NCBI GenBank assembly: GCA_045587125.1 | Contig: JAZNBN010000016.1 | Span: forward strand, 32,728-96,727 | Origin: Candidatus Enterousia sp. | GTDB taxonomy: Bacteria; Pseudomonadota; Alphaproteobacteria; Rs-D84 | Length of the DNA: 64,000 nt | Direction of reading: 5' to 3' | Shown here: positions 363 to 55,321 of the stretch, one piece after another | Numbering within the stretch: the stretch's first letter is position 1 | How the letters are laid out: each line of letters begins with the position of its first letter | Program-made: the position numbers and the translations under genes | Notes under the pieces: generated by a model | What the model saw: the letters and a program-made list of their open reading frames with translations, nothing else | What the model was told of the DNA's origin: nothing | Databases searched by the model: none

Positions 363-1925
363 ATGGTTCAGTATATGAATAATAATTCTGGTTTTAATCA
401 GTGGAACGCTAATAAAAATGCAGCCGCTAAAAAGGGTGGTTTTTCTGGTTTTTTGTGGTGGATGTTAATGTTTTTCATCGCATGGTGGGCAATTGGTGCG
501 ATAATGTCCCCCAAACAAAATGTTGATAACGTTGCGACCCAAGTTTCAACGGTTGATTTATCTGGGGTTCCTGTAACGCATATATCATCTGATGTTTTGA
601 ATACATCTGTCCAGGGTTTACGCGTATCAAATGCGAAATTGGCAAATTATAAAGTAACCCCAGAATCCGAAGAATTGGTTACATTGTTTGGCGGTGATGA
701 TAATTATATCGAGGTTGGATTATTGTCCAGTGGCACCAACGCCCCAATTGCAACAACTGTATGGCGTAACCAAGATGGTGCATACACATGGCGTAATTCA
801 GACGGTATTGATTTTAAACGCACAATAAATATTGATGGCTACGTTATAAAAATCCAAGACACAATTACAAATAAATCTGGTCAAGACGTTGCATTTGCGC
901 CATACGCACATATTGTTCGTGAAAATGATATGAAATCTGCATCTGGTACAACTAATGGTGCGATATCATATGTCAATTCTGATGTTGAAGATATTCCATG
1001 GCATAAATTAGATAAAAAAGCATACGCATATTCAACAACACATGGTTTTTCTGGGTTTGCAGACCAATATTGGGAAACAGTCGCATCTATTGACAGTCCT
1101 GATCAAACAATCCGCATAAAAAAGTCTGGCGATAAATATATTTCTGATATATCTGCTGCGGCTGTATCTGTACCGGCGGGCCAGACAGGCACAGTTACAA
1201 CAAATATCTTTGTTGGCCCCCGTGATCAGAAAATATTAGACACCGCAGAAAGCCATATTGTTGGACTTGGTGAAACAATAGATTATGGTTGGTTTTGGTT
1301 TTTGGCGCGTCCAATGTTGTGGGTTTTAAATGGGATACATTCTGTTGTTATGAATTATGGTGTTGCGATTATCATAATGACAATATTGTTGCGTTTATTG
1401 ATGTGGCCATTGACCCGTAAATCATACACATCAATGGCTGCTATGCAAAAGATGCAACCTGAAATGCAACGCATTCAGAAATTGTACGGCAATGATAAAA
1501 TGCGCATGCAAATGGAAATGATGAAATTGTACCAAGAACATAAAACATCCCCGATGTCTGGCTGTCTGCCAATGTTGATTCAAATACCAATATTCTTTGC
1601 ATTGTACAAGGCATTATTGGTATCTGTTCAAATGCGCAGTGCACATTTCTTGTGGATATCTGATTTATCTGCGATGGATCCATATTTTATATTACCAATA
1701 TTAATGGGTGCAACAATGTGGTTACAACAACGTCTGCAATCCGGTGCGAAAAAGATAGCAAATGGTAATGACGCGGTTGCCCAAACGCAAAAGATGATGC
1801 AGTGGATGCCGATATTATTCACGATAATGTTTGCATGGATGCCAGCCGGCTTGGTTTTATATTGGACGGTATCAAATATCTTTGGCATTATTCAGATGGA
1901 AATAATAAAAAAGCAAAGCAAATAA
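363..1925 (+). CDS. yidC: Membrane protein insertase YidC
   Basis: 520-aa ORF with an N-terminal TM, a large periplasmic domain and a C-terminal multi-TM core (MQKMQPEMQRIQKLYGNDKMRMQMEMMKLYQEHKTSPMSGCLPMLIQIPIFFALY) characteristic of YidC/Oxa1. Start could be 363 or 375. Confidence 0.9.
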   Translation: MVQYMNNNSGFNQWNANKNAAAKKGGFSGFLWWMLMFFIAWWAIGAIMSPKQNVDNVATQVSTVDLSGVPVTHISSDVLNTSVQGLRVSNAKLANYKVTPESEELVTLFGGDDNYIEVGLLSSGTNAPIATTVWRNQDGAYTWRNSDGIDFKRTINIDGYVIKIQDTITNKSGQDVAFAPYAHIVRENDMKSASGTTNGAISYVNSDVEDIPWHKLDKKAYAYSTTHGFSGFADQYWETVASIDSPDQTIRIKKSGDKYISDISAAAVSVPAGQTGTVTTNIFVGPRDQKILDTAESHIVGLGETIDYGWFWFLARPMLWVLNGIHSVVMNYGVAIIIMTILLRLLMWPLTRKSYTSMAAMQKMQPEMQRIQKLYGNDKMRMQMEMMKLYQEHKTSPMSGCLPMLIQIPIFFALYKALLVSVQMRSAHFLWISDLSAMDPYFILPILMGATMWLQQRLQSGAKKIANGNDAVAQTQKMMQWMPILFTIMFAWMPAGLVLYWTVSNIFGIIQMEIIKKQSK

Positions 1926-3931: not shown

Positions 3932-4168
3932 ATTCCCCCCATAAAGTTTTAAAAACCGTCAAGATTGTGACGGTCGGGGAGTTAGAAAATCATATAAGTT
4001 AAATGACTCTGTGGTTTTTCGGTTGCCCGTATTTTATAACCATCAGCCCCCCGACACAGCGTCAGGGTATGATAACGGCGCAAAAAACACCGAAACATCT
4101 ATTTAACGATGCTTTCGCACCGAACTTATATGGGCTTTCTACAACCCCGAACCCAATCTTGTGGATTC
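3932..4168 (-). promoter_or_regulatory. Long structured 5' leader with terminator-like hairpin just upstream of the RBS
   Basis: About 240 nt lie between the predicted promoter and the 3931 start. On the minus strand there are GC-rich hairpins: CGGTGC-GAAA-GCATCG and CCCTGAC-GCTGT-GTCGGGG. A CCGTCA-CAATCT-TGACGG hairpin followed by TTTTT (plus 3951-3973) sits directly before the GGGGGG SD. Confidence 0.45.
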
Positions 4169-4175
4169 AACGTAT

Positions 4176-4204
4176 ATTATATATGAAAAAAGACATATTT
4201 GCAA
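4176..4204 (-). promoter_or_regulatory. Candidate sigma70 promoter for the 3931-2390 operon
   Basis: Minus strand reads TTGCAA (4199-4204), 17-nt spacer, TATAAT (4176-4181). Confidence 0.55.
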
Positions 4205-5292: not shown

Positions 5293-7686
<2,394 letters not shown>

Positions 7687-13314: not shown

Positions 13315-13680
13315 ATGGCAGACATTCAAAAATTAGTTGAAGAATTGTCAAAATTGAGCGTTTTGGAAGCAGTTGAACTGTCCAAAGCATTAGAAGAAAC
13401 ATGGGGCGTTAGTGCTGCTGCTGCTGTTGCAGTTGCTGCTGGTCCTGTTGCTGCTGCTGCAGAAGAAAAAACAGAATTTGATGTTGTATTGGCAGAAGCT
13501 GGTGCAAACAAATTGGCTGTTATCAAAGCAGTTAAAGATATCACTGGTTTAGGTTTGGGCGAAGCAAAAGCTTTGGTTGAATCTGCACCAAAAGCAGTAA
13601 AAGAAGCTGTTGCAAAAGATGAAGCTGAAAAAATGAAAGCAACATTAGAAGCAGCAGGTGCTAAGGTTGAATTGAAATAA
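13315..13680 (+). CDS. rplL: 50S ribosomal protein L7/L12
   Basis: 121 aa. Ala-rich hinge and C-terminal [34 protein letters not shown]. Confidence 0.95.
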
Positions 13681-22981: not shown

Positions 22982-24040
22982 ATGTCAGAAGATAAGAAAG
23001 TCATAGCAATTGATACCATGGGTGGGGACAAAGGTCCAAACGCTGTATTGGGTGGTATGAATCAGTTTTTGTATCAACATGGCGAAGATGTATTTTTTCG
23101 CATCTTTGGTGATGAAAAGGTATTACGCAAATTATTGGCAAAATATCCACGTGTTGCCCGTAATTGCGAAGTAATCCATGCACCTGGGGTTATCAAGGGA
23201 ACTGATAAAGTAATGGACGTTCTGCGTCATGCCCAAGATACATCTATGTACATGGCAATCAAAGACGTTCGTGAAGGAAAATCTGCCGCGGTTATCAGTG
23301 CTGGTAACACAGGCATGTTGATGTCATTATCTAAATTGGCGTTGAAAACAATTGATGGTATTGCACGTCCTGCGATTACAACAATGTTACCATCTGGGGC
23401 GGGGGACAGCCGTGTTGTCGTTCTGGATTTGGGTGCAAACGTTCAATGTGATGAAAATGTATTGTTTGACTTTGCCGTATTGGGCAGTGTTTATGCCGAA
23501 GTTGTGGGCAAAATGCCAAAACCAAAATTGGGTGTATTAAACATTGGTTCCGAAGAAACCAAGGGCAATGAAACATTGGTCCATTTGAATAAAGTTCTGA
23601 CAGAAAATAAAGATGAATTGCCATACGAATACATCGGTTTTGTAGAGGCAAATGATATCAGTGCGGGTAAGGTTCAGGTTGTTGTGACCGACGGCTTTAC
23701 TGGCAATATCGTATTGAAAACGGTTGAAGGTACCGCAAAATTAATTAAACGTGTTATCGTTGAAAATTTCAAGAAATCTGTTTTGGCGATAATGGGTGCT
23801 TTTTTCTTGGTACACGTATTTAAACGTTTAAAGAATAAAATTGACCCACGTTCTTATGCCGGTGCGACATTTTTGGGATTGCGTGGTTTTGCGTTTAAAA
23901 CACATGGGAACAGTGATGCATTGGCATTTGCAAATGCGATAAAATATGCATTTGATTTGACCAAGGCAAACCTTAATGGATTAATAGAAGAACGTGCACG
24001 TGCACTGGCCACGGTCCGTGCAAAATTACAAGAAGAATAA
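22982..24040 (+). CDS. plsX: Phosphate acyltransferase PlsX
   Basis: 352 aa. IAIDTMGGDKGPN, SAGNTGMLM and VTDGFTGNIVLKTVEG. Confidence 0.93.
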   Translation: MSEDKKVIAIDTMGGDKGPNAVLGGMNQFLYQHGEDVFFRIFGDEKVLRKLLAKYPRVARNCEVIHAPGVIKGTDKVMDVLRHAQDTSMYMAIKDVREGKSAAVISAGNTGMLMSLSKLALKTIDGIARPAITTMLPSGAGDSRVVVLDLGANVQCDENVLFDFAVLGSVYAEVVGKMPKPKLGVLNIGSEETKGNETLVHLNKVLTENKDELPYEYIGFVEANDISAGKVQVVVTDGFTGNIVLKTVEGTAKLIKRVIVENFKKSVLAIMGAFFLVHVFKRLKNKIDPRSYAGATFLGLRGFAFKTHGNSDALAFANAIKYAFDLTKANLNGLIEERARALATVRAKLQEE

Positions 24041-24064
24041 AAATCCCCTTGTGGGATTTTTTTA
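24039..24064 (+). terminator. Rho-independent terminator after plsX (also the 5' edge of the duplicated cassette)
   Basis: AAATCCC-CTTGT-GGGATTT plus T-run. Homologous to 53727-53752. Confidence 0.7.
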
Positions 24065-24129
24065 TTTATGATAAAATTCACGTAACAGGGAAAAACGAAG
24101 GAAAAAATGATAGAATTTCGCAGAAATCT

Positions 24130-24153
24130 AGAGAGAGAGAGAGAGAGAGAGAG
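24130..24153 (+). repeat. (AG)12 dinucleotide tract
   Basis: Counted directly: AGAGAG... for 24 nt. The paralogous position 53820-53833 has (AG)7. Confidence 0.95.
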
Positions 24154-24193
24154 TTAAAAACATTTAACGCAAACCGTGTTTGCGTGTATGAAT

Positions 24194-24234
24194 AAACACC
24201 CAATGGTGCGTTGCGCCATTGGGTGTTTGTTTTG
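24194..24234 (+). terminator. Leader terminator-like hairpin, copy 1
   Basis: Perfect 13-bp stem AAACACCCAATGG / CCATTGGGTGTTT, 9-nt loop, then GTTTTG. Confidence 0.5.
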
Positions 24235-24273
24235 AAACGAAAGGAACAGATATAGAACAAAGCACTTAATAAA

Positions 24274-24381
24274 CCTTGTCATTGCGAGGGGTGTTAACCC
24301 CGTGGCAATCCAGTGAATCGTGCTTTGTTATACTAAGGCCAAATTAACTGGATTGCCGCGCTATCGCTCGCAATGACAAGG
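24274..24381. mobile_element. MITE-like palindromic element inserted in the leader
   Basis: Perfect 15-bp terminal inverted repeats CCTTGTCATTGCGAG / CTCGCAATGACAAGG. Inner 11-bp IR GGCAATCCAGT / ACTGGATTGCC. Small GGGGT-GTTA-ACCCC hairpin. Absent from the paralogous leader at 53753-53941. Confidence 0.5.
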
Positions 24382-24416: not shown

Positions 24417-25559
24417 ATGAAAAAATATTTTTTAACCACCGCATTAATGGGAACGTTTATTGCACCTGCATTCGGTGCCGATAAAATAATAACCAGTGCG
24501 AATACATGTACATTTGACGTATTGGGTGTGCATGAAAATGATTCAACTGCAAACACAATAGCGACATGGGATTTGATAGATTATACATTGAATCCAGGGC
24601 AATACTTAAACGTAACAGAAACATCTGTGGACAAAACAACATGTCCCGCGGGTTCATATTGCGTTGGTGGTGGTTATACAGTTGAAACGGCGGACAACAG
24701 TATCGCCCAATGTCCGGCGGAATACCCGAACAGTGCCGAAGGTGCGGGTGCGGATACACAATGTTACACGGCATGTACGCTTAATATGGTTCCAAAGGCA
24801 AAGGCAGTTACCGGTAATGATTATTATGGCAATGGCACAGATACATGCGAACCAACGGCATGCGTTGCCGGTTGGCATGTAAAACCTGGATTAACCCTGA
24901 CAGAAATAATAGGTGAAGAAGCAGGTACTAACAGGGCACATATAAGAAACGATGGTTCATTTGACGAGGTTGATTTTGGTGGAGGTATCAAAGGCCAAGA
25001 ATATTATGGTATCAGTGGCAAAAATAGTTTTGCAGTAGATTATGCAGGTAAAGGTATGTTGACCGGCCATGGCCGTTGCAGCACGCAACCAGGGGTAAGA
25101 GAATTTGACTGGCCAACAGAGACTGGTGGAGAAATAACCGTTGTAAACAACCTGACCGATGAAACGGGTCAGGAAGGTGCGAAGTATTGTTATTGTCAGG
25201 TTGATGGTTTTACGCCAACGGGTGGCGACAAAGTAATAGTTACATCGGCCCCTTGGGTGTACTCAGACAACTCCAACGGCTCGGCAGATTATTGTGTTGA
25301 CAATTGTGCAGGATCCTGTGGTATCGCATTGGTTAATGACGTTGTAATCAATCTTCATTTACGTGCAGTGATGTTTGAAGCGATCGGATCAATAACACCT
25401 GCAACATGCGCCGCCAACACAATAAATATCGACTGGAATCCGGATAATGGTGGTGAACATACAGTTAATCAGTGTACATACGAAGGTAGTATTGAATTGC
25501 CAACCCCAGACCCAGTTAAACCTGGATATACATTTACGGGTTGGAAGTTGGTGGATTAA
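24417..25559 (+). CDS. Secreted Cys-rich modular protein with C-terminal GYTFTGW module (family member)
   Basis: Signal peptide MKKYFLTTALMGTFIAPAFG. The N-terminal ~120 aa are colinear with 53942-55321. The ~170-aa centre is unique. C-terminal NTINIDWNPDNGGEHTVNQCTYEGSIELPTPDPVKPGYTFTGWKLVD. Confidence 0.8.
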   Translation: MKKYFLTTALMGTFIAPAFGADKIITSANTCTFDVLGVHENDSTANTIATWDLIDYTLNPGQYLNVTETSVDKTTCPAGSYCVGGGYTVETADNSIAQCPAEYPNSAEGAGADTQCYTACTLNMVPKAKAVTGNDYYGNGTDTCEPTACVAGWHVKPGLTLTEIIGEEAGTNRAHIRNDGSFDEVDFGGGIKGQEYYGISGKNSFAVDYAGKGMLTGHGRCSTQPGVREFDWPTETGGEITVVNNLTDETGQEGAKYCYCQVDGFTPTGGDKVIVTSAPWVYSDNSNGSADYCVDNCAGSCGIALVNDVVINLHLRAVMFEAIGSITPATCAANTINIDWNPDNGGEHTVNQCTYEGSIELPTPDPVKPGYTFTGWKLVD

Positions 25560-51322: not shown

Positions 51323-53728
51323 ATGGCAACATTGACACTTGGAAAATCTGTAACAACTGATGCAGTTCGCAGCAAAAAAGGCGACGCGGTCTTTGTAGAA
51401 CGTCGTCGTCGTGTTGTTGCCCCAGGCAGCAAAGAATTGCGTGATGAACCAACTGCGCCAAGCGCGCCAAAAAACGCAGCAGATGAAAAATTGCGTGCGG
51501 TTTTGGCGGCTGCCAAGGCACGTGAAGAAGAACGTAAAAAACGTGAAGCCGAAGAAGAGGCCGCACGTGCTGCACGTGCTGCGGAAATTGAACGCGAAAC
51601 ACGTGAATACGAACATGTCAAAGAACAATTGGCTGCACGTGAAAACGCACCTGTTGCGGATAATGCAGAAGAAAATGTTGCCACGCCACGTCCGCAAAAA
51701 CATGCATCACAACCAAAAGTTTTTACAAATAATGCCACGCCAAATACAGGGCGCAAAAATCGTGATAATGACGAAGATGACAATCGTTCTTCACGCTTTG
51801 GAAATTCCAAGAAAGATTTTAAAAAGACTGGAAAAATTCACCTGCGTGATATTGTTATGGGCGATGGCGAAGACGATGATGAAATCGGTATTCGTGGTGC
51901 AAACCGTCGCCGGTCCGAGGCTTCATTAAAACGTTTCCGTGAAAAGGCACGTGCGGTGTTTACAGTCCCACAAAAGGTTGAACATGTTGTGTCTTTGGGT
52001 GATACGATAACAGTAAAAGATTTGGCGGCTGCAATGGCTGAAAAGGTCGGCAATGTTATCAAAAAACTGATGGAAATGGGAATGATGGTTTCTGTGAATC
52101 AGTCTATTGATGCGGACACTGCGGAATTGATTGCAGGTGAATTTGGTGCGACTGTTAAACGCGTTGATGTTAAACCTTATGCAGATATTTTGGAACGCGA
52201 ACCCAACCCAGAATTGATGACACCACGTGCACCGGTTGTAACGGTTGTAGGTCACGTTGATCATGGTAAAACATCTTTGTTGGACGCATTCCGTAATGCA
52301 AATGTAGCCGCGGGCGAAGCAGGTGGTATTACCCAGCATGTATCTTCGTACGAAGTTAAAACAAAATCTGGTGCGATGATAACATTTTTGGATACGCCGG
52401 GGCATGAAACATTTACAGCAATGCGTGCACGTGGTGCGCAAATGGCAGACATTGTTGTATTGGTTGTTGCGGCAAATGATTCAATCATGCCACAAACGAT
52501 AGAGGCGATTAATCACATTCGTGCGGCCAACGTTCCATTTATTGTTGCGATAAATAAAATTGACTTGCCCGAAGCAAATGCTATGCGTGTAAAAACAGAC
52601 CTGTTGCAACAAGAGGTCCAGGTTGAAGAAATGGGCGGTGATGTTCAATGTGTTGAAATTTCTGCAACCAAGAAAATCGGTCTGGATAAACTGGAAGAAG
52701 CAATTTTATTACAGGCCGAAATGATGGAATTAAAAGCCGACGCAGAAATGCCGGCGGTCGCATACGTGGTAGAGGCGAAACAAGAAAAAGGTCTTGGGGC
52801 GGTTGCAACTGTATTGATGCGTCAAGGTACATTGAAAATTGGTGATGTATTTGTTGTTGGTGAAACATTTGGTCGTGTACGCGGTCTGATAAATTCTGCG
52901 GGTGAACGTGTAAAATCTGTCCGTCCGGGTCAACCTGCGGTTGTTTTGGGATTAAATTCTGTCCCAGGTGCAGGTGATGAATTGCGTGTTATGGAGTCTG
53001 AGGCCCAAACACGCGAAGTTGCGGCATATCGTGCACAAAAAACCAAGGACAAAGCAAATGCAGTTAAACGTTCTTCTTTGGAAGAATTGTTTGCAAAACG
53101 TGATGATAATAAAAAGTTAATTTTGCCAATCATTTTACGTGCAGACGTTCAAGGTTCTGTTGAGGCGATTACAGACATGGTCAAAGACATTGCCACAGAC
53201 AAAGTTGGTGTTGAAATATTGTCTTCTGGGGTTGGTCAAATTACCGAAGGTGATATACGTTTGGCAACGGCATCTGGTGCGGTGATAATTGCATTTAACG
53301 TTCGTGCAGATTCTGTTGTTCGTGATATGGCACGCAGCAATGGTGTTGATATCAGATATCACAGTGTTGTATATCGCATCACAGATGAAATCAAAGAAAT
53401 ACTGTCTGGTAAATTGGCACCTGAAAAGCGTGAAACATTTATCGGATACGCAGACGTTATTGCATTGTTCACAGTGGGCAAAGGCGTACGTGTTGCCGGT
53501 TGTCGCATGACCGAAGGCACGGTTAAAAAAGATGCGTTTGTACGTCTGTTGCGTAACAACGTTGTAATATATGACGGAAAAATCGGACAATTACGTCGTG
53601 AAAAGAACGAAGTAAAAGAAGTATCTGGTGGCGTTGAATTTGGTATGTCTTTTGATAAGTATAATGACTTAAAAGAAGGCGACCGTGTTGAATGTTACGA
53701 GGTTGAAGAAATCCGTGCACAAATATAA
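51323..53728 (+). CDS. infB: Translation initiation factor IF-2
   Basis: Start probably ATG 51323 (the ORF opens with GTG at 51314). G-domain [25 protein letters not shown] and NKIDL. Confidence 0.95.
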
Positions 53729-53752
53729 AAAATCCCCCTTGTGGGGATTTTT
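53727..53752 (+). terminator. Rho-independent terminator after infB (5' edge of cassette 2)
   Basis: AAAAATCCCC-CTTGT-GGGGATTTTT. Confidence 0.7.
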
Positions 53753-53819
53753 AATTTATGATATAATTCACGTAACAGGGAAAAACGAAGGAAAAAATGA
53801 TAAAATTCCGCAGAAATCT

Positions 53820-53833
53820 AGAGAGAGAGAGAG
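53820..53833 (+). repeat. (AG)7 dinucleotide tract
   Basis: Counted directly. Paralogous to the (AG)12 tract at 24130-24153. Confidence 0.95.
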
Positions 53834-53876
53834 TTAAAAACAAATTTTAACGCAAACTACGTTTGCGGTAATGAAT

Positions 53877-53922
53877 AATCACCTTAATGGCATGTCGTGC
53901 CATTAAGGTGATTATTTTTTTA
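53877..53922 (+). terminator. Leader terminator hairpin, copy 2
   Basis: Perfect 16-bp stem AATCACCTTAATGGCA / TGCCATTAAGGTGATT, 5-nt loop, then ATTTTTTT. Ends 20 nt before the start codon. Confidence 0.6.
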
Positions 53923-53941
53923 TAACGAAAAGGAAAGGGAA

Positions 53942-55321
53942 ATGAAAAAATATTTTTTTACAACAGCAATTATTATGGCGACATTCGGCGCATTTGGTGC
54001 GAACGGCACAATTACGGGCGGTGCGGGAACATGTACTTTTGACGTATTGGGTGTATCGGACAATAACGCAACCGCAAATACAATCGCAACATGGACATTG
54101 AACGAATATGAATGCGGTGCTGGTCAATATTTATTAAATTCAGATGGAACATTGAAATGCACAGAATGTCCGGTTGGTTCATATTGCCCGGGTGGTAAAT
54201 TCACGGTTGAATCTGAAAACAATGGTACAAACGCATGTCCAACAGATTATACATCGGACGCGGGTGCAGTGGGTGAAAACGAATGTTATATAGGTTGCGA
54301 ATTGTCTTGCAGTACGAACGTAGAATGTCCACCGCATTCCAATAATTGTACACACAGTGAATTTAAAACCACCGGCAAACAATTTGCGGGCGGCACCTGT
54401 AATGCATACCCCAGTGTGTGCCCAATCAATGATTTTCAGTGCGACACGGGGTATAGTAAAACGGAAATGACATTGGATGAGTTTGAAGAGCTGGCGAAGG
54501 CAGATAATGGTTCAGGTCTAATACTTGAGTGTCCCTTGTCTGGAAACGGTTTGTCAGAGAATGATAATATAGACGATTGTAAATTTTTACGTCCCGGTGA
54601 AATTATGATACTTTCCGGCAAATTTTATGCTATTTTTATTGAGGTGGCTTTGAATGATTATTCGATTGATACACCAGGTATTGTGACAAAAAAAATACAA
54701 CAAGTTTCACCGTACGATGATGAGTATGTTACGTTCGCATATTTACCAAATGCGAATTTTAATCTTGGGGGTAATGGACAACAAATGTGGGCAAGGTATT
54801 CAAAAGTCGCTATTCCGGGGCCCGACACAATGGTTTATTTAGGAATGGCGGAACAAGGGTTTGAAACAGAAGACGAAATGATGGTTTATCTGCAACAAAA
54901 TTTATCCCCAGCCGCATGGGAAAGTTTTAATTCTTTAATGACTCGGGGAGATCAAGAATCTATGTTTGAATGGATGTTATCTACAATGAATATTATTTCA
55001 GTAGACATGCCTTGGGTGACTTCGGATAAACAAGAGTATTTGCAATCTCTTGAAACCAAGTTGTATTCTGTGGTGATACTTGATGCGTTCGGAGATGAAC
55101 ACGTAAGCGAAGACTTTATGAAAGATTTAGAAGAATCAAGAAATTCAGTATCGTACTGTGCAGCCAACACAATCAATATTGATTGGAACCCAGATAATAA
55201 TGGCGAACATATCAAAAATATGTGTACGTATGATGGCAGTATTACTGTTCCATCCGATCCAGTTAAACCAGGGTATACATTTACCGGTTGGAAGTTACTG
55301 GAAGAAACCACAACCGAATAA
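53942..55321 (+). CDS. Secreted Cys-rich modular protein with C-terminal GYTFTGW module (family member)
   Basis: Signal peptide MKKYFFTTAIIMATFGAFG. N-terminal module GAGTCTFDVLGVSDNNATANTIATW...CPVGSYCPGGKFTVE. Unique ~260-aa centre. C-terminal NTINIDWNPDNNGEHIKNMCTYDGSITVPSDPVKPGYTFTGWKLLE. Confidence 0.8.
   Translation: MKKYFFTTAIIMATFGAFGANGTITGGAGTCTFDVLGVSDNNATANTIATWTLNEYECGAGQYLLNSDGTLKCTECPVGSYCPGGKFTVESENNGTNACPTDYTSDAGAVGENECYIGCELSCSTNVECPPHSNNCTHSEFKTTGKQFAGGTCNAYPSVCPINDFQCDTGYSKTEMTLDEFEELAKADNGSGLILECPLSGNGLSENDNIDDCKFLRPGEIMILSGKFYAIFIEVALNDYSIDTPGIVTKKIQQVSPYDDEYVTFAYLPNANFNLGGNGQQMWARYSKVAIPGPDTMVYLGMAEQGFETEDEMMVYLQQNLSPAAWESFNSLMTRGDQESMFEWMLSTMNIISVDMPWVTSDKQEYLQSLETKLYSVVILDAFGDEHVSEDFMKDLEESRNSVSYCAANTINIDWNPDNNGEHIKNMCTYDGSITVPSDPVKPGYTFTGWKLLEETTTE

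Follow-up and report, generated by a model that had tools for sequence, protein, structure and literature searches.

What can a perfect dinucleotide repeat do when it is placed, at different lengths, in front of two related genes for secreted proteins? The question is raised by a stretch of 64,000 nucleotides from Candidatus Enterousia sp. (contig JAZNBN010000016.1, positions 32,728 to 96,727), which was analysed as a whole and is referred to here as the window. The organism belongs to the order Rs-D84, whose members live in the gut and have genomes of about 0.75-1 Mb (PMC12306168). The window contains two copies of a leader of ~190 nt, each located 5' of a paralogous secreted-protein gene and each containing an uninterrupted AG run, with 12 units at locus A and 7 units at locus B. 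We propose, with a confidence that is only slightly better than even, that these tracts are the mutable element of a phase-variable transcription attenuator in which the reading frame of a leader peptide decides on the formation of a terminator, as in the pil1 system of Streptococcus gallolyticus.

The AG tract is a real, non-random feature. At locus A, positions 24120-24162 read GCAGAAATCT-(AG)12-TTAAAAACA, and at locus B, positions 53810-53842 read GCAGAAATCT-(AG)7-TTAAAAACA. Tandem Repeats Finder described the first tract as a repeat of period 2 with 12.0 copies and 100% matches. Within the 64 kb, AGAGAGAGAG is confined to the two AG tracts, and it had 0 matches in 100 dinucleotide-preserving shuffles. 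The leaders also agree on both sides of the repeat: between the -35 element and the tract, 81 of 86 nt are identical, a 34-mer is shared without change (24079-24112 = 53769-53802; 0 expected by chance), and ~85 nt 3' of the tract can be aligned between A and B, with compensatory changes in a long hairpin. The downstream open reading frames (ORFs) are paralogs (BLASTP E = 4e-49), whose products have a signal-peptide-like N-terminus and a C-terminal Listeria-Bacteroides repeat in common. An initial annotation of this DNA had reported a duplicated leader with an AG run of 12 versus 7 units before two paralogous secreted-protein genes, and this was confirmed by the sequence, Tandem Repeats Finder, the shuffles, and BLASTP. 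The tracts and the genes concerned are the following:

24130..24153, plus strand: (AG)12 repeat of locus A, located within the leader ORF and coding for (Glu-Arg)n whatever the frame
53820..53833, plus strand: (AG)7 repeat of locus B, likewise located within the leader ORF
24417..25559, plus strand: predicted regulated gene A, coding for a 380-aa Cys-rich secreted protein with the C-terminal Listeria-Bacteroides repeat
53942..55321, plus strand: predicted regulated gene B, coding for a 459-aa paralog of A

Related leaders were sought by a protein-guided scan with one genome per species and by a metagenome scan with the exact pattern GCAGAAATCTAGAGAGAG (n >= 4). The protein-guided scan found relatives in just two Candidatus Enterousia metagenome-assembled genomes (MAGs), one of them with 18 paralog loci. 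The leader L008 of a second Enterousia species, which was ascertained via the protein, reads GCAGAAATCT(AG)10 and continues with the same layout of hairpin, terminator, and ribosome-binding site. The metagenome scan gave 14 matches, including L021 (n = 5), L023 (n = 7), L022 (n = 14), L027 (n = 13), and the special case L020 described below; nine (L024-L026, L028-L033) were unrelated chance matches. Look-ups of homologs of protein B (P0122, P0125, P0127, P0129, P0143) added the AG leaders L051, L052, and L054, all with n = 9, as well as several leaders of a second type; L055 is a 100% identical copy of L054 with n = 9. The ten leaders compared in the following (those of loci A and B, L008, L021, L022, L023, L027, L051, L052, and L054) were counted as eight distinct loci, as L051/L052 and L054/L055 are in each case near-identical copies of one locus. 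At independent loci, n was 12, 7, 9, 9, 10, 5, 7, 14, and 13, and the tract was always pure. L022 and L027 are collinear over 2 kb with ~82% identity and are therefore apparently orthologous loci from two species; with leader flanks of 95-96% identity, they have n = 14 versus 13. A same-strand secreted-protein gene lies 3' of the leader in 10/10 cases, and the AG-leader motif had 0 matches in the viral contigs scanned. The metagenome contigs with L053, L052, L055, and L021 begin within or just after the shared leader, L053 at a distance of 2 nt from the tract. Such contig ends are probably due to the leader being present in multiple copies, but reads that differ in tract length would have the same result.

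Where the tract lies relative to the promoter is decisive for its possible function. The pattern TTGNNN-17/18-TANNNT, mostly with an extended TG, is present in all eight leaders with enough upstream sequence and ends 50-65 nt 5' of the tract; in the form TTGYGG-N17-TGATAWAAT, which is conserved in relatives, its end lies 52 nt 5' of the tract. As the conserved promoter ends upstream of it, the tract should be transcribed, with a transcription start that is expected near 24084 at locus A. The same promoter (ccTTGCGG...TGATAAAAT) is also found 5' of tract-less leaders of other paralogs. The elements in the window are:

24039..24061, plus strand: hairpin after plsX (AAAAATCCCCTTGTGGGATTTTT), terminator-like on both strands (terminator scan), containing the -35 element TTGTGG (24049-24054) at 17 nt from the -10 element
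24069..24077, plus strand: extended -10 element TGATAAAAT, part of the promoter pattern conserved in eight leaders
53728..53767, plus strand: hairpin after infB and promoter of locus B, with -35 element TTGTGG (53739-53744), 17-nt spacer, and extended -10 element TGATATAAT (53759-53767)

The terminator-like hairpins that end plsX and infB (24039-24061 and 53728-53752) carry the -35 element TTGTGG in their loop and 3' arm, and a hairpin of this type with TTGTGG is also part of the cassettes of L051 and L054, much as an integral insulator would be.

Between the promoter and the structural gene, a short ORF is predicted in 10/10 leaders, with an in-frame ATG that is preceded by an AGGA-type purine-rich Shine-Dalgarno (SD) sequence. 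It codes for M-x-x-x-R-R-N-L-(E-R)n, the codons before the repeat being CGC AGA AAT CTA, followed by (GAG AGA)n, and the observed peptide starts are MIEFRRNL, MIKFRRNL, MAKIRRNL, MFKKCRNL, MTEIRRNL, MLKKRRNL, MLKFRRNL, and MHFYHKNRRNL. Codons 2-4 vary freely (IEF, IKF, AKI, FKK, TEI, LKK, LKF), and the sole length change between ATG and tract, one of 9 nt in L023, keeps the frame. The C-terminus of the peptide is not conserved. In all leaders, the (AG)n tract lies inside this ORF, and its unit length is not divisible by 3. We infer from this arrangement that the leader ORF is translated. In the window, its position is as follows:

24097..24157, plus strand: SD GAAGGA (24097-24102) and leader ORF of locus A from ATG 24107 to TAA 24155-24157, peptide MIEFRRNLERERERES at n = 12
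53787..53850, plus strand: SD GAAGGA (53787-53792) and leader ORF of locus B from ATG 53797 to TAA 53848-53850, peptide MIKFRRNLERERVKNKF at n = 7

The region between the leader ORF and the structural gene is predicted to form two conserved hairpins in the RNA:

24167..24185, plus strand: hairpin 1 of locus A (ACGCAAAC-CGT-GTTTGCGT), with covariation across ten leaders
53851..53867, plus strand: hairpin 1 of locus B (CGCAAAC-TAC-GTTTGCG), with covariation
24191..24236, plus strand: predicted intrinsic terminator A, with a 19-bp stem (24191-24231) and a U-rich tail; the TAA of the long frame (24193-24195) lies in the 5' arm (RNAfold)
53873..53924, plus strand: predicted intrinsic terminator B, with a 20-21-bp stem (53873-53917) and a T7 run; the TAA of the long frame (53876-53878) lies in the 5' arm (terminator scan)

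In hairpin 1, which may serve as a pause hairpin, 2 of 7 pairs show compensatory changes in the ten leaders. The consensus of the second, very strong hairpin, the putative terminator, comprises 20 pairs, 12 of them with compensatory changes, and has contiguous stems of 15-21 bp followed by a U-run. The main ribosome-binding site follows ~15-30 nt after the U-run, except where palindromic elements have been inserted (locus A, L051, L054); at locus B, the distance is ~15 nt, and there is therefore no room for another promoter. A trp-like antiterminator was looked for between hairpin 1 and the terminator, where just weak, non-conserved pairings of -3 to -9 kcal/mol were obtained, so that any effect would have to come from a ribosome that directly covers the terminator arm. 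A pairing of GCAGAAATCT with downstream sequence is perfect in L021 and is not conserved in the other leaders. The AG leader matched no Rfam family at the gathering score, the best sub-threshold hit being sroE with 22.8 bits versus 51, and an Rfam scan of the window matched tRNAs alone.

AG repeats are read as Glu-Arg in all frames, without stop codons, and n therefore sets only the frame in which the downstream sequence is entered. For each exit frame of the ten leaders, the position of the stop codon was counted from the base at which the terminator stem begins. In 10/10 leaders, a single frame, termed the long frame, has its stop codon inside the stem, at +1 to +17 nt, and the remaining two frames end 23-45 nt before the stem:

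Locus A: long frame +4, other frames -24 and -34
Locus B: long frame +5, other frames -23 and -36
L051, L052, and L054: long frame +5, other frames -23 and -33
L008: long frame +11, other frames -32 and -45
L021: long frame +16, other frames -45 and -37
L023: long frame +17, other frames -44 and -36
L022 and L027: long frame +1, other frames -45 and -31

The long frame corresponds to carry 0 for leaders of the window type and L022/L027, and to carry 2 for L008 and L021/L023; since it differs between lineages, the layout has been kept through register-changing indels.

These features can be combined into the following mechanism. The upstream promoter (-35 TTGTGG, extended -10 TGATAWAAT) would transcribe a leader that comprises, in this order, the short ORF with its own SD and ATG and the (AG)n tract inside, hairpin 1, a strong intrinsic terminator, and the ribosome-binding site of the gene. 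Slippage by one unit (2 nt) would change the frame in which the ribosome exits the tract. In two frames, the ribosome would stop 23-45 nt before the stem, the terminator would form, and the gene would be OFF or low. In the third frame, the ribosome would pass hairpin 1, stop in the 5' arm of the terminator, and occlude this arm while RNA polymerase is at the U-run, which would lead to read-through into the gene (ON). The window leaders would be in the long frame when n = 2 mod 3. With 12 units, locus A is in a short frame with its stop at TAA 24155-24157 and would reach the long frame at n = 11 or 14; locus B (n = 7) is in a short frame with its stop at TAA 53848-53850, and its nearest long frame is at n = 8. 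Both loci are thus predicted to be OFF or low and one AG unit away from ON. The 10-bp difference between the two tracts had been annotated as about one helical turn, a property that is not relevant here: what matters is the frame, and 10 bp, being 3x3+1 nt, amounts to a shift of one frame between n = 12 and n = 7. Switching of the tracts and the direction of its effect are predicted from sequence.

In S. gallolyticus, leader ORFs with GCAGA repeats and a stem-loop terminator precede the genes of pil1 and pil3, as was shown experimentally (Danne et al. 2014, PMC3894217). When the leader stop lies at least 28 nt before the terminator, expression is low, whereas an out-of-frame change of the repeat places the stop within or just before the stem, where the ribosome blocks the terminator and pili are produced at a high level; switching occurs at a rate of about 5e-3 per cell per generation (PMC3894217). 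The window leaders have every feature of this system that can be recognised from sequence. They have the same order of promoter, leader ORF with ribosome-binding site and ATG and a repeat whose unit is not a multiple of 3, terminator, and gene for a surface structure; the short frames stop well before the terminator (at least 28 nt there, 23-45 nt here) and the long frame at or within the stem; most genomes are in the low state, and there is more than one such device locus per genome. The differences concern the repeat, which is a dinucleotide, (AG)5-14, instead of the pentanucleotide (GCAGA)13-23; the host, which is an uncultured gut alphaproteobacterium with a reduced genome, known here from sequence alone, and not a Gram-positive coccus; the leader RNA, which has an extra conserved hairpin between ORF and terminator and much longer terminators (15-21 bp); and the cargo, which consists of secreted Cys-rich proteins of at least two unrelated families and not of pili.

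Other systems share single aspects of this arrangement. The CT repeats in the signal-peptide coding region of oipA, hopZ, and sabA of Helicobacter pylori (PMC10564699) are likewise dinucleotide frame switches for outer-surface proteins, but in the window, the repeat belongs to an upstream ORF distinct from the gene, which has a ribosome-binding site, ATG, and signal peptide of its own behind a terminator. The in-gene arrangement of oipA (PMC10564699) is the one found in L020, where GCAGAAATCT(AG)11 lies within the coding region (1012-1328, minus strand of the locus), 5' of the signal peptide. Read from the upstream ATG, a secreted Cys-rich protein of 292-294 aa with a typical signal peptide would be encoded only if n were 10 or 13, and the assembled n = 11 leads to 21 aa; the tract would therefore be used as a frame switch in this clade, too. 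In hifA/hifB of Haemophilus influenzae, a dinucleotide repeat is also located 5' of a gene for a surface structure, but between -35 and -10, whereas the AG tracts lie 50-65 nt past the -10 element and are transcribed and apparently translated. The analogy to the promoter-spacing TA repeats of hif, which had been suggested for the window, hence fails, and the pil1 attenuator of S. gallolyticus and the CT-repeat frame switches of H. pylori are closer. In H. influenzae hmw1A (PMC12721329), a simple-sequence repeat is transcribed in the 5' leader of an adhesin gene, as here, but its ATCTTTC repeats pair with a G-rich arm to a long hairpin that is processed by RNase III, whereas the AG tract is partnerless and inside an ORF. 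As in the pyrBI and trp leaders of Escherichia coli, the position of a translating ribosome would decide on terminator formation, with direct occlusion as in pyrBI; unlike in these leaders, no conserved antiterminator was found, and the input would be a heritable frame change and not a metabolic signal.

A full-text literature search yielded S. gallolyticus as the only system of phase variation via leader-peptide frame and terminator. The window leaders most likely represent this known, rare kind of switch, the new aspects being the phylum and the dinucleotide unit. If the proposed attenuator is true, the S. gallolyticus type of switch extends to uncultured gut Alphaproteobacteria with reduced genomes and to dinucleotide repeats, and host-associated bacteria with genomes <1 Mb spend regulatory machinery on the stochastic variation of a large secreted-protein family, which is a hallmark of immune or phage evasion. 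It would also mean that leader repeats regarded as 'intergenic' can be frame switches of unannotated upstream ORFs, which would be misclassified by phasome tools limited to promoters and annotated genes.

Several points qualify the proposed attenuator or weigh against it. The layout of one long and two short frames speaks for it, but shuffling of the tract-to-terminator sequence yields this layout at 0.15-0.28 per lineage, and the product over four lineages (~0.003, or ~1e-4 if the definition is made stricter) can only be taken as an upper limit of the significance, suggestive and not conclusive, as the four lineages are homologous. L021, L022, L023, and L027 were found by a pattern that demands n >= 4, by which tract-less versions are undetectable. 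A simple sigma-70 scan called no promoter in either leader region because the -35 element matches at just 3/6 positions, and the promoter assignment therefore rests on conservation. Hairpin 1 is conserved and has no role in the proposed model of the switch. Just 1/10 leader sequences (L022, n = 14) is in the predicted ON frame, which fits a multigene family with most members silent and would be allowed by chance, too. Dinucleotide tracts of similar length in Neisseria were found not to vary (PMC5953494), so that tract length alone is no proof of switching. Finally, the pairs of sequences from the same locus, L051/L052 (99.8% identical) and L054/L055 (100%), have equal n = 9, which for such near-identical strains is uninformative or mildly against extreme instability. 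L051 and L052 differ by 5 single-nucleotide polymorphisms in 2299 nt, all located in the leader (1 in the SD, 1 in the loop of hairpin 1, 3 in the terminator loop), with an unchanged AG count; this suggests gene conversion between paralogous leaders or a mixing of repeated leaders in the assembly. With respect to AG counts in relatives, variation is hence seen across loci (n = 5-14) but not between near-identical copies of one locus. Slipped-strand phase variation, as proposed in the initial annotation, is still the best reading of a pure, length-differing dinucleotide repeat before genes for secreted or surface proteins, whereas the promoter-based mode suggested along with it is unsupported.

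Some of these points would be accounted for if the tract were an effectively neutral microsatellite in a real leader or attenuator whose read-through is set otherwise, e.g. by a protein or small RNA acting on hairpin 1. The equal n = 9 of near-identical strains, the conserved and covarying hairpin 1, and the fact that dinucleotide tracts are not always phase-variable (PMC5953494) are in line with this explanation, which we nevertheless consider unlikely: a pure tract with n >= 5 is present in every such leader although the sequence behind it has diverged beyond easy alignment, the tract lies within a conserved ORF, the layout of one long and two short frames is kept despite differing long frames, and 0/57 loci show a leader of the hairpin-1 type without a tract.

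Rather improbable is an action of the tract at the RNA level, either as a purine-rich binding platform, e.g. an Hfq-type (AG)n site, or as one arm of a structure in the 5' untranslated region, the length of which would tune stability or processing. Hfq has affinity for AG repeats, and the position of the promoter argues for transcription of the tract. The 10-mer GCAGAAATCT is kept at the nucleotide level even in L020, where it is read in another frame (PQKS, not RRNL); this conservation is unexplained and partly a consequence of how the loci were found. A precedent is provided by hmw1A (PMC12721329), but a complementary CU-rich arm is absent from all AG leaders, minimum-free-energy folds leave the tract unpaired, and such a role would explain neither the frame layout nor the conservation of ATG and SD.

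The combination of promoter, short ORF, and terminator could also be an independent small gene for a small protein or small RNA, with the downstream gene having its own promoter. The unit is indeed complete from promoter to terminator, and in locus A, L051, and L054, inserted palindromic elements of 100-250 nt before the gene are possible promoter carriers. We regard this as quite improbable, since a same-strand secreted-protein gene follows every one of the ten leaders, just ~15-30 nt separate the U-run from the ribosome-binding site in locus B, L008, L022, and L027, and the C-terminus of the peptide is not conserved.

An influence of tract length on promoter geometry or on the 5' end of the RNA, as originally suggested, is very unlikely. 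Within the window alone, TGATAGAAT (24108-24116) and TGATAAAAT resemble extended -10 elements. The locus B counterpart had been placed at 53808-53816, which is wrong, as TGATAAAAT there occupies 53798-53806. In other leaders, TGATAGAAT is not kept as a promoter element, the corresponding sequences being ATGCTCAAA in L022, ATGACCGAA in L021, ATGTTCAAA in L008, and ATGGCAAAA in L054; it consists of the ATG of the leader ORF plus the next two codons, and its conserved part is the ATG, in frame with the tract and preceded by the purine-rich SD. The alternative promoter TTAACG-N17-TATGAA overlaps the covarying hairpin 1, and its -10-like part is missing in L008, L021, and L022. With the conserved promoter 50-65 nt upstream, the tract is not enclosed by a pair of promoter hexamers and is not located where the RNA would begin. 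That the purine/pyrimidine mirror repeat forms triplex DNA (H-DNA) and thereby modulates transcription or replication is hardly credible: AG mirror repeats are a sequence class compatible with H-DNA, but the tracts are short (10-28 bp), the conserved anatomy needs no triplex, and the ORF and frame layout would remain unexplained.

Beyond the switch itself, a wider reading of the leader-peptide attenuator can be formulated, which we put forward tentatively and at somewhat less than even chances. According to it, the leaders are modular three-state cassettes with a short, a medium, and a long frame, which are composed of an insulating hairpin, the promoter, the leader ORF with (AG)n, a pause-like hairpin, and the terminator, and which have spread before unrelated secreted-protein families in Enterousia and relatives and, in L020, into a coding region. 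Together with a second structured leader RNA, they would provide for combinatorial stochastic expression of a large set of surface proteins, and they would be the first such attenuators outside Gram-positive cocci and the first based on a dinucleotide repeat.

The genomic context of locus A bears on the mobility of these cassettes. Exact-sequence look-ups of the PlsX of the window and of both secreted proteins returned no record, and neither did that of P0158, the best B-like homolog; for protein B, the next best homologs are 53% identical, and no conspecific alleles were among them. The best PlsX match anywhere is 93% identical, the nearest ones 91-93%. In the checked contigs with a PlsX of 91-93% identity, plsX is followed by rpsA or an unrelated gene, with no AG leader there, and the whole cassette of locus A (hairpin, promoter, leader, and gene) is therefore an insertion. 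In L038, plsX is instead followed by a leader of the second type. The cassettes appear to be units that are mobile or undergo rapid rearrangement.

Besides this, the leader of locus A is ~180 nt longer than that of locus B, with a palindromic element of ~110 nt between the shared leader and the ribosome-binding site:

24274..24381, no strand assigned: palindromic insertion resembling a miniature inverted-repeat transposable element, between terminator and main ribosome-binding site, with inverted repeats; absent in locus B and outside the switch

Its termini are CCTTGTCATTGCGAG and CTCGCAATGACAAGG, with further inverted repeats inside, and GTCATTGCGAG, the motif at the ends, was found again in 13 retrieved Enterousia loci, often as inverted pairs. 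Unrelated palindromic elements are present at the same position in L051 and L054; the spot therefore seems to tolerate or attract insertions.

The second type of leader, designated type 2, is a structured, tract-less leader of ~250 nt, which is located in the window at 3932-4190 (minus strand) and was also found in L003-L019, L038, L050, and L056. In the window, it precedes a third secreted-protein operon composed of the ORFs 3931-3185 and 3181-2390 (minus strand), the second of which is a paralog of A and B, and in the Enterousia MAGs it is located 5' of most paralogs. In its consensus fold, 20 of 39 pairs show compensatory changes, and the fold includes a long-range helix with a 6-nt core that differs in every paralog. 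The 5' arm of the hairpin CTCCTGACC..GGTCAGGAGG (CCCTGAC..GTCGGGGGG in the window) is repeated just before a terminator, an arrangement that looks like an antiterminator/terminator platform. No Rfam family matches the type-2 leader, which is a candidate for a new cis-regulatory RNA.

Two other repeats in the window are a run of TGGTTC x11.8 at 7102-7172, inside a 797-aa ORF (5293-7686, minus strand) in which it would code for Glu-Pro repeats, and a run of TGC x16 at 13413-13460. As both units are multiples of 3, these runs are candidates for in-frame length polymorphism and not for frame switches.

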